DNA of 64,000 nucleotides from a virus (IMGVR_UViG_3300047547_000167:28928-92927), one strand, 5' to 3'. Shown: positions 4,857 through 55,322, counted from the stretch's first letter. A program made the numbers and translations. The notes: generated by a model from the sequence alone, not told the origin.

Positions 4857-4941
4857 TCCTCCCCGACAAGTAAAGGTGGGCGGCGCGCACAGGGGGAGGA
4901 CTGCGCGCGCCTTTTCAGCCGGTAGCTAACCGGCGTAGCCC
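4857..4941 (-). promoter_or_regulatory. structured 5' leader of the primase gene; anti-SD loop complementary to its RBS
   Basis: GGGC..GCCC closes two hairpins (GCCGGT-tagct-ACCGGC and GGCGCGCGCAG-TCCTCCCC-CTGTGCGCGCC); the loop is complementary to GGGGAGGA at 4864-4857. Confidence 0.65.
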
Positions 4942-9234: not shown

Positions 9235-10092
9235 ATGATCCAAGCAGCGCAGCAGACATCAGGAGTTATCGCCAGAGAGGAAGCGGGCGCTGCCGGGTAC
9301 AAGCGCTACTTCACCGGCGTGCCGTGCATGAGGGGGCATGTCGCCGAGCGACTCGTGACCAACACGCGATGCGTCCAGTGCCACAGGGAGAAAGCCAAGG
9401 TGCAGCGGGCCGCCGATCCGAGGTTGGCGGCCAGGCTGGAGGCGGCCGCGTCCGCAGCAATAGCGGCCGGGAAAAATCTGCTGTCGCGCCAGGAGGCCAT
9501 CGCACTTGGCGCGAGGCACTTTTTCACGGGGGTGGCATGTATTCGAGGACACATCTCCGAACGACTTGTCAGCGATCACTCATGCAAAGAATGCAACAGG
9601 GCGAAGGCCGCACAAGAGCGCGCACTCAATCCCGAACTGGTCAGGCGCAGGGTTCGGCAAAGCTATCAACGCCACATCGAAAAGCAGCGCGAACAATCTC
9701 GTCAGTACATGAATGCCAAGTACGCATCCAACCCAGAGGCATTTCGAGATAGGCTGCGTCAACGACGTGCAAGCGACCCAGTTTTTGCCTTTAACCACCG
9801 CGCTCGACAGATGGTCCGATCAGCGTTGATGAGGACTGGATTCAGAAAGGCCAACAAGACAGAGGCCCTTCTGGGTTGCTCCCTGGCTGAATTTAGAGGG
9901 CACATCCAGCGTCAATTCTTGCCCGGTATGGGATGGCACAACATGAGAGCTTGGGAAATCGACCACATCGTCCCGATCTCAACAGCAAAAACCAAGGAGG
10001 AAGCCGAAGCCCTCAACCACTTCACCAACCTGCGACCGCTCTGGAAGATCGACAACAGAAGCAAGCACAGCAAGACCACGCACCTGATTTGA
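9235..10092 (+). CDS. HNH endonuclease with two FTGxxCxRGH-CxxC repeats
   Basis: YFTGVPCMRGH..CVQC and FFTGVACIRGH..CKEC; WEIDHIVP...NHFTNLRPLW..DN. Confidence 0.8.
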   Translation: MIQAAQQTSGVIAREEAGAAGYKRYFTGVPCMRGHVAERLVTNTRCVQCHREKAKVQRAADPRLAARLEAAASAAIAAGKNLLSRQEAIALGARHFFTGVACIRGHISERLVSDHSCKECNRAKAAQERALNPELVRRRVRQSYQRHIEKQREQSRQYMNAKYASNPEAFRDRLRQRRASDPVFAFNHRARQMVRSALMRTGFRKANKTEALLGCSLAEFRGHIQRQFLPGMGWHNMRAWEIDHIVPISTAKTKEEAEALNHFTNLRPLWKIDNRSKHSKTTHLI

Positions 10093-12280: not shown

Positions 12281-12348
12281 TCGCGGGAAATTGCGTTAAA
12301 ATTAGTGCATCACAACCGCCCCATCGGGGGCTTCAACCAGGAGAATTC

Positions 12349-53064: not shown

Positions 53065-53448
53065 ATGAATTGTGTGCTCTTACGCTGCGCCGCACAAGAA
53101 CAGGGGGGGCAAAGGGTGGGGAACGACAATCGCGCTCGGATTGAGCGCGCCGAGAGGTATGCAAAGTCGGACGAGGGGGTGAACGCGAGCCTTGGTGAGA
53201 TGGCGGAATGCGCATGCATGAGCCGCTTTCACTTCGCCCGCGTTTTTCGTGACGTTACAGGCAAGACTCCGATGGAGTACGTGCTCGAACAGAAGATCGA
53301 GTGCGCCAAGAGGCGGCTGGCCACGGGGCGCTGCAGTATCGCAGCCGTCGCGGCGTTGTGTGGGTTTTCAGACCAGTCCCACATGACGCGGGTGTTTAGG
53401 CGCAACCAGGGAGAAACCCCGGCGCAATTCAAGCGCCGCCAAGAATAG
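53065..53448 (+). CDS. stand-alone AraC/XylS-family HTH regulator
   Basis: SLGEMAECACMSRFHFARVFR..TG.TP.EY...IAAVAALCGFSDQSH.TRVFR...G.TP..F; start at 53065 or 53116. Confidence 0.88.
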   Translation: MNCVLLRCAAQEQGGQRVGNDNRARIERAERYAKSDEGVNASLGEMAECACMSRFHFARVFRDVTGKTPMEYVLEQKIECAKRRLATGRCSIAAVAALCGFSDQSHMTRVFRRNQGETPAQFKRRQE

Positions 53449-54586
53449 CGCGAAGCTCATCCCCGAACGCCGGATCGTCGCCGGGGGCGTCCTCGATCAC
53501 GGGCACCCAACGGCCACGGCAGTGCGGGTGGGCCAGCCCGGCTGGGATTTGCCACATCTCGTCAGGCTCGCGGTCCACCAGCACGTCGCCGACGCGCTTC
53601 TTCGGAGAGGCAGAACGGCCCACGTTGTTCTTTCCCGGCCAGATCATGGTGTCGGGGTTTTTGTCCGGGCGGTCGGCGGCGACAACCGTGACCACGCGGC
53701 CATCGATGCTGCGGCAGAAGGCGCACGCGCCCTCGTACCGCTCCACGCGCTGGACCTTGGTGCCGGGCTTCAGGCTGGCGATGTAGCCCTGCAGCTGGGC
53801 CTCGCCCGCCTCGGTGACGGCGATGCGCCGCCAGTCCCGATTGAGGGCGCCGAACTCGTCCAGCAGCTTGGTCTCCAGGCTGCTGGTGCCCGGCGGCAGG
53901 TTGCCCAGAGCCCGCTGCTCCAGATCGGCGACTACCACGGCGCGCAGGCGGTGGCGGGTGTTGTCGGACAGGGCCTGAACGTGCTCGGCTGCGCGGGCGC
54001 GGGCGAACGTGAGCACGGCCTGGGTGGCTGCCGACAACGCGGTGGCCTGCGCAGCCGACGAAGGCAGTGCCGCCAGGATGGCGTCGGCCTGCTTGGCGGT
54101 TGGCGTCTTGCCTTCGAGATTGGCCTGCACCTTCCCCATCATCGTGGCCTTTGTGGCGAGCCAGTCGGCCTCGGCCACCAGCTCGCCAGCGGGCAGGTGT
54201 CGCTGCACCACGTACTCGATGGCGAGAAGGTGGTCGTCCAGCGTCCAGACGGCGGGCGGCAGGCTTTCCAGGTACAGGCGGGCCAGGGACAGCTCGGCCT
54301 CGTTCCAGCGGGAAAGCATGCCGGGCGGTGTGGGCTGGATGGATGCGGTGGGGGTGTGATTCGCGCCAGACTGCCAGGCCAGCAGCTGCTGGTGCACGGC
54401 ATCCAAGCGGGCCAGGCCGCGCTCGGTAAACAGCTCGATCAGGCGGCGCACCAGGGGGGAATCGTGGGGCTTCCAGATGCCGTCCTTCCCGTGGTCGTGG
54501 CCGTCGGAAAGCGCTTTGTAGAGCCCCTCCAGCATGTCGTTGGTGGCGCGGATCGGGACGTGCAGCAGGTCGAGGAATAAGCCCAT
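53429..54586 (-). CDS. head morphogenesis protein (SPP1 gp7/Mu gpF-like)
   Basis: RDWRRIAVTE, ACAFC, HPHCRG. Confidence 0.82.
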   Translation of the reverse strand: MGLFLDLLHVPIRATNDMLEGLYKALSDGHDHGKDGIWKPHDSPLVRRLIELFTERGLARLDAVHQQLLAWQSGANHTPTASIQPTPPGMLSRWNEAELSLARLYLESLPPAVWTLDDHLLAIEYVVQRHLPAGELVAEADWLATKATMMGKVQANLEGKTPTAKQADAILAALPSSAAQATALSAATQAVLTFARARAAEHVQALSDNTRHRLRAVVVADLEQRALGNLPPGTSSLETKLLDEFGALNRDWRRIAVTEAGEAQLQGYIASLKPGTKVQRVERYEGACAFCRSIDGRVVTVVAADRPDKNPDTMIWPGKNNVGRSASPKKRVGDVLVDREPDEMWQIPAGLAHPHCRGRWVPVIEDAPGDDPAFGDELRAILGGA

Positions 54587-54592
54587 CCGGGC

Positions 54593-54608
54593 AGTGTCGC
54601 GTCACGAC
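54593..54608 (-). promoter_or_regulatory. putative late promoter motif, 6 nt before ATG
   Basis: GTCGTGACGCGACACT-GCCCGG-ATG, directly after a terminator. Confidence 0.8.
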
Positions 54609-54636
54609 AAAAAAAAACCCGGCGCAAGGCCGGGTT
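54609..54636 (-). terminator. intrinsic terminator
   Basis: AACCCGGC-cttgc-GCCGGG followed by T9. Confidence 0.9.
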
Positions 54637-54868
54637 CAAAACTCCGGCCCAGGGAGGAAAGGCCGGCCACCTGTAGAGTGGAAGGTCGGCAGCCTGCCGC
54701 ACGGGGCATGGAGCCCACTACGGCGGCAGTGCGTGCCAGATTTGGCACCGGGAGCCTTTCACCCAGTTGGCTTGTCGCGGCTCTCACGCGCATCAGCCGG
54801 GAAACCCCAGCCTGCCGGTTACGCTATCCGGCCCCGTGACGAGCAACTGAACTGCTCGCTGGTCGGCG
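54609..54868 (-). ncRNA. candidate structured ncRNA (~260 nt)
   Basis: about nine consecutive stems; TATAGT -10-like box at 54880-54875; terminators on both sides; no credible ORF. Confidence 0.55.
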
Positions 54869-54913
54869 GAACGAACTATACAACAACTTTATCGGCGCGG
54901 TGCGTCCACCACG

Positions 54914-54948
54914 AAAAAATGGTGGCGTGCTACCAACACGCCACCATT
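54914..54948 (-). terminator. intrinsic terminator
   Basis: AATGGTGGCGTG-ttggtag-CACGCCACCATTTTTT. Confidence 0.85.
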
Positions 54949-55100
54949 CTCACCCACCATTCGACTACGGGCGAACCCGCTGGCGGGAGCGTTTTCAGCG
55001 CATCTGCCTCCGACTGTTACCAGCCGAGGAACCCGGCTGCGCGGGTTGAAAGTTCTCCCGGCGGCTTAGCCCCCGCCGGACCTGCCAGACTTCAGGCGTT

Positions 55101-55322
55101 CTAGGGCGTGCTGCTGATTCCAAGGAGCATCAAAATGAGCGCCTCTTCCTCCTGTTGCCGGCGCTTTCGCGCCAGCGATGTGCTGCTGATTCCGGTGCTC
55201 GACGTGCTTGTTGGGCCCCAGTCGTAAACGGTCGCGGGCGGCAGCGGCTCTGGCACGGCCAGCATCCGGCCAAATGAATTGCCGAATGCCTTGCCAAACG
55301 ACAGGCCCCATGCTGAAGCCAT
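55101..55322 (-). CDS. hypothetical protein
   Basis: MASAWGLSFGKAFGNSFG; adjacent to the upstream stop codon. Confidence 0.65.
   Translation of the reverse strand: MASAWGLSFGKAFGNSFGRMLAVPEPLPPATVYDWGPTSTSSTGISSTSLARKRRQQEEEALILMLLGISSTP

Follow-up and report, generated by a model that had tools for sequence, protein, structure and literature searches.

A variable island of structured RNA modules in a phage genome ends in a candidate anti-Shine-Dalgarno small RNA

The DNA analysed here, which we refer to as the window, is a stretch of 64,000 nucleotides (bases 28928-92927) from the record of an uncultured virus, complete at 92,927 bp; the G+C content of the phage genome is 64%. The interval of interest lies on the minus strand of the window between phage structural genes. 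Downstream of it is a 385-aa head-morphogenesis-like gene (53429-54586, minus strand) which at the DNA level resembles phages of ~90-95 kb, for example Pseudomonas phages Jeremy and Dolphis and Bordetella phage PHB04; in phage Jeremy, a portal gene precedes the homologue of this gene. Upstream are genes for virion proteins and, farther on, for a SNF2-type helicase and a head protease. In some of the related phages an HD-domain protein is encoded just upstream of the corresponding site (L095 reverse strand 1-245, L069:883-1080; the prefix L marks the loci used for comparison), and the PHB04 homologue of this gene (L105:892-1470) is annotated as a (p)ppGpp synthetase/hydrolase. ARAGORN detected no tRNA gene either within the window or elsewhere in the genome, and there was no match to RF00005 in the region.

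All of the elements named in the original prediction are present on the minus strand: two terminators, a TATAGT box, eight hairpins and a CU-rich loop, UUUCCUCCCUG. The upstream boundary of the unit is a terminator at 54914-54948, in which a 14-bp hairpin (-21.9 kcal/mol) precedes U6. A promoter-like box of the TTGnnGTAnAnT class, TTGTTGTATAGT, lies at 54875-54886 (with TATAGT at 54875-54880) and places the predicted start at ~54867-54872. It is followed by module M1, which consists of the hairpin CGAGCA-GUUCAGU-UGCUCG (54840-54858, -7.4 kcal/mol) and a second hairpin with the loop AUAGCGUAA (54814-54832), and then by the three hairpins of module M2, namely Ha (GGCUGGG-GUUU-CCCGGCU, 54795-54812), Hb (CGCG-UGAGAGC-CGCG, 54776-54790) and Hc (CUGGG-UGAAAGGCU-CCCGG, 54748-54766). 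A short window-specific hairpin, GUGCCA-AAUC-UGGCAC (54733-54748), leads into module M3, a long hairpin with bulges (54688-54737; -33 kcal/mol, z = -3.37 against shuffles) that takes in the predicted stem at 54694-54729. A further small hairpin, CCAC-UCUACAG-GUGG (54667-54681), sits directly 5' of the CU-loop hairpin of module M4. This last seed hairpin (54644-54666) carries the anti-Shine-Dalgarno loop UUUCCUCCCUG at 54650-54660, which is unpaired in both the minimum free energy and the centroid folds of 272-, 129- and 73-nt contexts. The U-rich spacer AGUUUUGA then precedes an intrinsic terminator with a 9-bp GC-rich stem and U9 (54609-54637), identified from the fold and by a terminator scan. 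The combination of a U-rich spacer and a long U tail is typical of Hfq-dependent sRNAs, and the module in the window has both.

The terminator at 54914-54948 is also the end of a conserved structured element of ~150 nt (window 54950-55105, minus strand) that starts right after the stop codon of the upstream ORF. This element is present in nearly all relatives, including those in which the downstream interval is empty, and in the cultured Pseudomonas phage Jeremy it lies between the portal gene and the next gene. Across its five helices 90.7% of cells are paired and 20 of the 27 pairs are changed on both sides; none of 500 shuffles matches these values and slid controls are at most 46% paired. 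The element has no match in Rfam and is the best-supported structured RNA of the neighbourhood.

Two classes of promoter-like sequence distinguish the interval from its surroundings. Directly after the U9 terminator, outside the RNA and at its downstream boundary, lies a late promoter, GTCGTGAC-gc-GACACT, separated by 6 nt from the ATG of the 385-aa gene (54584-54608, minus strand) and conserved before this gene in relatives. The minus strand of the genome has ~15 copies of the late motif, GTCGTGAY-N2-nAnnnT (for example at window 54608, 53033, 47393, 41165 and 32122), and the plus strand a few looser ones. Eight minus-strand copies and one plus-strand copy, nine in all, are positioned exactly 6 nt from the start codon of a long ORF, a spacing that fits leaderless mRNAs. 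The plus strand of the genome further contains four copies of a 19-nt sequence, AAAATTG-TTG(C/T)(A/G)GTAGAAT, and a fifth variant (genome positions 4469, 22136, 25452 and 28123, all before the window, and window position 12291). Three of the four copies read TTGCAGTAGAAT and one reads TTGTGGTAGAAT, and at least two are followed by AAGGAG-type ribosome-binding sites. These sequences, with which the box at 54875-54886 shares the TTGnnGTAnAnT class, probably represent the early promoter class of the phage. The TTGnnGTAnAnT-class box is found at the head of the interval not only in the window but also in L010, L013, L006, L069, L095 and L112. The prediction that the interval is transcribed independently thus has in its favour two bounding intrinsic terminators and a recurring promoter-like box, but a generic sigma-70 consensus scan returned no -35/-10 pair at 54875-54886, and TTGTTGTATAGT is best regarded as a putative promoter. 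As the class of this box is distinct from the late class that flanks it, the interval is probably a separate unit with a timing different from that of the surrounding genes.

We compared the locus with 15 viral and seven metagenomic loci found via the downstream protein, and with L095, which was added via the loop motif; the metagenome scan provided three informative relatives (L063, L064 and L069). Among relatives the distance from the conserved upstream element to the gene start ranges from ~180 to ~1500 nt. The slot is without an island in L011, L012, L017, L067 and phage Jeremy, and contains one to five tRNA genes in L007, L010, L013, L014, L063, L064 and L069. L003, whose downstream protein is 98% identical, contains everything present in the window together with an insertion of 281 nt between 54743 and 54737, and L005 (97%) has the first 110 nt and last 65 nt in common with the window around a different filling of 355 nt. 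The three-hairpin module M2 is shared with L064 (86%) and L010 (66%), and only the last module, M4, with L006 (77%). In L063 and L064, M3 lies between tRNA-Pro and tRNA-Gly (or a tRNA-Gly remnant), with a U-run after it in L063, and in the 86-87% relatives tRNA-Pro and tRNA-Gly occupy the site of the anti-Shine-Dalgarno module of the window. Since the modules are common to relatives only piecemeal, and a 98% relative is interrupted in the middle by 281 nt, the ~260 nt are not the single conserved ncRNA that had been proposed. The interval is better described as an accessory 'stable-RNA island', a mosaic of separately inherited hairpin modules. The arrangement recalls the species 1 and 2 RNAs of phage T4, which are non-coding structured RNAs found among the phage tRNA genes and probably derived from a shared precursor. 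In relatives of our phage the same modules likewise lie between tRNAs, whereas this phage itself has no tRNA at all.

Individual modules within the slot are gained and lost. In L064, positions 1955-1990 are just the 3' end (…CCCGCUCCA) of a tRNA-Gly(UCC) which is intact in the near-identical L063 (1226-1299), which shows that a deletion has recently occurred inside the island. M4 is 92% identical at the nucleotide level between the window and L095 despite only 59% identity of the adjacent protein, which suggests that this module has been exchanged between phages. In L095, it is found between a CCAUCAACC junction and the late promoter, at a place that is empty in the similarly organised L069. 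M4 is missing from most relatives and is therefore dispensable. When a 16-mer from Ha was searched against viral contigs, only relatives already in the set and matches in coding sequence were recovered. A CU-rich loop, CUUUCCUCCUUUCU, is also present on a different stem (CCUGCUGG/CCAGCAGG) at another island position in L069 (1296-1325), so that such loops have more than one origin in these islands; in L013 the loop of the homologous hairpin (2717-2752) is not anti-Shine-Dalgarno.

At the position of the short 54733-54748 hairpin, relatives have long-stem cassettes of 70-180 nt (L003:2567-2642, L005:2551-2628, L010:1811-1932, L013:2753-2845, L063:724-902, L064:1461-1639 and L069:1326-1396), to which the window offers only a 16-nt stub as counterpart. 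The closing helix of these cassettes, 13-18 bp, always has CCAUCA at its start and UGAUGG at its end while the remainder of the helix covaries. The interiors vary, and one of them holds a T-arm-like GCGG-UUCGAUU-CCGC. The cassettes have no match in Rfam; an assignment to Y-RNA/YrlA or another known family was rejected as there was no Rfam support for it, and a hammerhead-like reading of CUGAUG...ACAA was dismissed on visual inspection, its core positions being different and also variable from one relative to another.

Certain short motifs recur throughout the islands. The loop AUAGCGUAA is found on a different stem (CCCGG/CCGGG) in L007, with related loops in L010 and L064. More generally, two sets of loops reappear on different stems, the first comprising AUAGCGUA(A) and related loops and the second UGAGAGC, UGAAAGC and UGAAAGGC; they are located at 54814-54832 and 54776-54790 in the window and in the islands of L007, L006, L010, L064 and L069. 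A junction motif, CCAUCAAC, recurs at module borders. Because the hairpins of the 5' 190 nt are conserved and their loop motifs recur, they may be protein-binding or processing signals. These same features could be taken as the marks of an RNA that works entirely in cis, by providing processing sites, protection from nucleases or put-like antitermination, with the CU-loop hairpin forming part of a compound terminator. Such a role would suit the conserved hairpins that, in several relatives, follow immediately after the promoter, the recurrence of AUAGCGUAA and of UGAGAGC/UGAAAGC, the junction motif at module borders and the sites consisting of an internal hairpin and U-run that stand ahead of tRNAs in the islands of relatives (L063). 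We nevertheless consider it quite unlikely, given that no match to a known cis element was found, that a separate promoter, located beyond the terminator, serves the downstream gene, and that the CU loop is conserved in sequence, not in structure alone, and matches a trans-acting sRNA family (see below).

The interval had been described as highly structured, and thermodynamically this is true only of its 3' 130 nt. Folding of the whole 272 nt gives a borderline z-score of -1.94 (3 of 200 shuffles were as stable). The 3' half (54609-54737, 129 nt) has z = -4.15, with none of 200 shuffles as stable, but the 5' half (54733-54872, 140 nt) is indistinguishable in this respect from its shuffles (z = -0.07; 86 of 200). 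Among relatives, compensatory changes back most of the small hairpins. In module M1, hairpin 1 of L005 reads CAAGCA/UGCUUG, a compensatory change of one G-C to A-U. Ha is kept in L003, L005, L010 and L064 with every cell paired across the relatives and a C-G to U-A change. The stem of Hb becomes CGGU/ACCG in L010 and CGUG/CACG in L064, so that two pairs are changed on both sides, and that of Hc, aligned by hand, becomes CCCGG/CCGGG in L010 and CCCGG/CUGGG in L064, with a G-C to C-G change. M3, which is common to the window, L003, L063 and L064, shows a C-G to A-U change. In M4 the seed stem CCGGCC/GGCCGG is replaced by CCGCGC/GCGCGG in L006 through two adjacent compensatory pairs, and the terminator of the same locus has an A-U to C-G change; the seed stem of L095 contains a G-U, and that of L003 a single G-A mismatch. 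The small hairpin at 54667-54681 is represented in L005, L095 and L006 by CAC-GCAA/ACAA-GUG. When Ha and Hb are taken jointly, all cells (100%) pair and both members of three pairs have changed; the covariation score is attained by 1 of 500 shuffles, and slid controls are 24-55% paired; this pair-count control was confined to Ha and Hb. The pairs of Hc and of the L006 CU-loop hairpin were tabulated by hand as MAFFT misregistered both. The covariation comes from few sequences but its signal is consistent.

Two of the predicted pairings did not survive this comparison. In place of a stem spanning 54752-83, the relatives support two other hairpins, Hb (54776-90) and Hc (54748-66). The 8-bp long-range complement is indeed present in the window, but L003 (CACGGAGC), the closest relative, has lost the pairing with no compensatory change, and its 3' partner is absent from L005; by our estimate roughly one such 8-mer pairing would be expected by chance in 260 GC-rich bases.

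It might be argued that the island is no more than the decaying remnant of an array of tRNAs and cassettes, in which the only function left is that of terminators insulating the late promoter. The heavy insertions and deletions between near-identical phages (the 281 nt of L003 and the 355 nt of L005) would be expected of such a remnant, as would the truncated tRNA-Gly of L064, the resemblance of the 54733-48 hairpin to the stub of a larger cassette, the z-score of the 5' half and the several relatives that do without the island. Decay of this kind is, however, hard to reconcile with the stems of Ha, Hb, Hc, M3 and M4, which hold their pairing by means of compensatory changes, with the loop motifs and CU loop, which are invariant in all five phage copies of M4 (window, L003, L005, L006 and L095), and with the disparity between M4 and the adjacent proteins in L095, which implies either selection or recent spread. 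We regard it as unlikely.

The interval does not appear to encode protein. Three ORFs overlap it, one on the minus strand (63 aa) and two on the plus strand (101 and 123 aa), and could in principle conceal a small protein gene or a leader peptide. None of them has a match in Pfam or PHROGs and none is conserved, in agreement with the earlier judgement that there is no credible ORF. The 63-aa ORF reads through the terminator and is interrupted in L003 by the 281-nt insertion, the length of which is not a multiple of three, and long spurious ORFs are to be expected at 64% G+C. A hidden coding function is hardly credible.

The 3' module is the part of the island for which a resemblance to known RNAs can be recognised. 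At gathering thresholds a search of the whole window against Rfam gave no match. At permissive thresholds only, the best match is to the anti-hemB family (RF02837), which extends over 54609-54669 on the minus strand and scores 45.5 bits (E ~1e-9), 4 bits under the gathering score of 49.5. The homologous copies in relatives score 50.6 (L006), 42.6 (L005), 40.5 (L095) and 40 bits (L003), so that the L006 copy, which is at the same position and keeps the middle segment of the family, passes the cut-off. Both structural hallmarks of the family are found in the window. Its 5' hairpin, with the loop UCuCCUCCCUGa, is represented by a paired stem and an identical UCCUCCCUG in the cmscan alignment, and the 3' rho-independent terminator, which defines the strand, is in place. 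The characteristic gene neighbour, hemB in Burkholderiales and Chromobacteriaceae, is replaced here by phage structural genes. Because the score falls under the cut-off, and because sub-threshold anti-hemB matches also occur in control genomes without the family, the window copy is best labelled anti-hemB-like and not a member of the family; the pairing of a CU-loop hairpin with a terminator could be convergent. Searching a collection of genomes for the exact seed hairpin and T-run recovered only one unrelated Syntrophaceae contig. When viral contigs were searched with the loop motif and T-run, most of the matches were antisense to ordinary Shine-Dalgarno and start regions beside terminators, and the only relevant matches were L095, with the same module, and L076. 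The latter (IMGVR_UViG_3300050150_000090), which has 62% G+C and falls outside the set of relatives, contains at 9435-9495 a hairpin with a UUUCCUCCCUG loop that scores 30.9 bits against anti-hemB.

The anti-hemB RNA was described in betaproteobacteria as a motif with a terminator at its end, and a non-coding RNA was the interpretation proposed for it (PMC1950547). It usually adjoins hemB in Burkholderiales and Chromobacteriaceae (PMC1950547; bioRxiv 10.64898/2026.09.01.748597), although a 2026 preprint reports copies away from hemB and suggests an action in trans (bioRxiv 10.64898/2026.09.01.748597). In Burkholderia cenocepacia J2315, ncS04 corresponds to anti-hemB and is seen as a 105-nt transcript on Northern blots that binds Hfq; the group to which it belongs has unpaired CU-rich stretches that are predicted to cover ribosome-binding sites, and overexpression of ncS27 slows growth (PMC5688073). 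The module in the window shares with anti-hemB/ncS04 the first hairpin loop UCCUCCCUG, the U-rich spacer and the rho-independent terminator with a long U tail, and a betaproteobacterial family (PMC1950547) would fit a phage of 64% G+C that is related to a Bordetella phage. It differs in being phage-borne and away from hemB, in lacking a middle segment of ~21 nt, and in having no promoter of its own but instead closing a longer non-coding unit at its 3' end. Moreover, ncS04 is a primary transcript of 105 nt that binds Hfq (PMC5688073), whereas the window copy is a predicted RNA.

The next Rfam matches are to other CU-rich sRNAs, namely mmgR, SorX and toxic sRNA. The betaproteobacterial toxic or double-hairpin sRNAs (RF02278; ncS03/05/27/62) and the Neisseria NmsRs are similarly short, have unpaired CU-rich stretches complementary to ribosome-binding sites and end in a terminator, but the window scores only 23.1 bits against RF02278 (cut-off 50) and has one CU-rich stretch where these RNAs have two. 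The alphaproteobacterial alpha-r8/MmgR (RF00519) and SorX (RF02784) have in common with the window a UUUCCUCCCU motif just ahead of the terminator. Here too the scores are below the cut-offs (27.1 against 41 bits and 21.9 against 46.6 bits, respectively), and the resemblance is likely to be one of design and not of descent.

As had been predicted, the loop UUUCCUCCCUG is complementary to the sequence GGGAGGA that stands 4 nt before the GTG of a 929-aa ORF ('primase') at window 4852. Among the start sites of the phage, complementarity of at least 7 nt to the loop is limited to this 929-aa gene and one small ORF. Nothing in excess of 7-8 nt of Shine-Dalgarno complementarity was found at phage start sites, and a crude ranking of duplexes was uninformative. 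The AAGGAG-type Shine-Dalgarno sequences of the early-class transcripts examined pair, as judged by eye, with only 4-5 nt of the loop. With so few phage start sites complementary to the loop and such poor pairing with AAGGAG, host mRNAs would be likelier targets than those of the phage. A further hairpin whose loop is CU-rich, GGCGCGCGCAG-UCCUCCCCCUG-UGCGCGCC, is located at window ~4880-4915 (minus strand), immediately ahead of the ribosome-binding site (GGGGAGGA) of the 929-aa ORF; the whole-genome search gave no anti-hemB-like match to it.

The original prediction went further and envisaged a partnership between the RNA and leaderless late transcripts. In its full form, this would have one ~260-nt ncRNA act as a whole to silence host and early mRNAs that are led by a Shine-Dalgarno sequence, leaving the ribosomes to the leaderless late mRNAs. 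Several aspects of the genome are in keeping with the proposal: the nine late-promoter copies with their exact 6-nt spacing lack a Shine-Dalgarno sequence, the sRNA unit has a different and probably earlier class of promoter, UUUCCUCCCUG is a good anti-Shine-Dalgarno sequence, and the region upstream of the 929-aa gene has another CU-rich loop, UCCUCCCCCU. The arrangement of late promoter and leaderless start is real and a link between it and the sRNA is possible, but the partnership is not required. L007, L010, L013, L063 and L064 all keep the leaderless arrangement before the 385-aa gene with no sRNA at the locus, and the complete genome of L010 contains no anti-hemB-like match anywhere, from which it follows that leaderless starts and the sRNA are not obligately coupled. 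The 260 nt are, in addition, not kept as a unit, and the early-class transcripts examined have the AAGGAG-type sequences that pair so briefly with the loop. A single sRNA is also unlikely to titrate all mRNAs led by a Shine-Dalgarno sequence. We consider silencing on this scale very unlikely. A related and more far-reaching proposal is that the island serves as an exchangeable toolkit of RNA modules, in which an early-class sRNA shuts down GGGAGG-led host translation from which leaderless late mRNAs escape, and in which the 5' hairpins (Ha, Hb, Hc and M3) and the CCAUCA cassettes of relatives constitute RNA families not yet catalogued, subject to processing or binding by factors of the phage or the host. 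This is in our view a long shot.

The reading that we favour, with a probability of roughly 0.55, is that the island is an early-class unit of exchangeable modules which ends in an Hfq-type anti-Shine-Dalgarno sRNA of the anti-hemB/ncS04 type. The ~260 nt would probably be transcribed as a single unit from the TTGnnGTAnAnT-class promoter to the U9 terminator, within a slot that in relatives may be filled by tRNA genes, by long-stem cassettes or by nothing, and whose modules are inherited, and probably exchanged, independently. Its 3' 61-73 nt would then constitute a compact sRNA made up of the UUUCCUCCCUG hairpin, the U-rich spacer and the terminator with its long U tail. The loop would most likely pair with GGGAGG-type Shine-Dalgarno sequences of host mRNAs, and possibly of a few phage mRNAs, such that initiation of translation is blocked, and the sRNA would be likely to have the help of Hfq in doing so.

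CU-rich anti-Shine-Dalgarno sRNAs are established bacterial regulators, and the finding is not far removed from existing knowledge of sRNAs in bacteria and in other phages. On present evidence the module is a new, phage-borne and putative example of this known kind of regulator, set in a fast-rearranging island of hairpins that are not catalogued. If this is correct, a copy exchanged among large virulent-type phages would add RNA-based translational interference to the means by which host translation is redirected, and the poorly understood anti-hemB/ncS04 family would gain a testable function, namely which ribosome-binding sites are masked. The cassette-like turnover of structured RNAs in this slot offers, in its own right, a useful handle on the evolution of phage tRNA islands.
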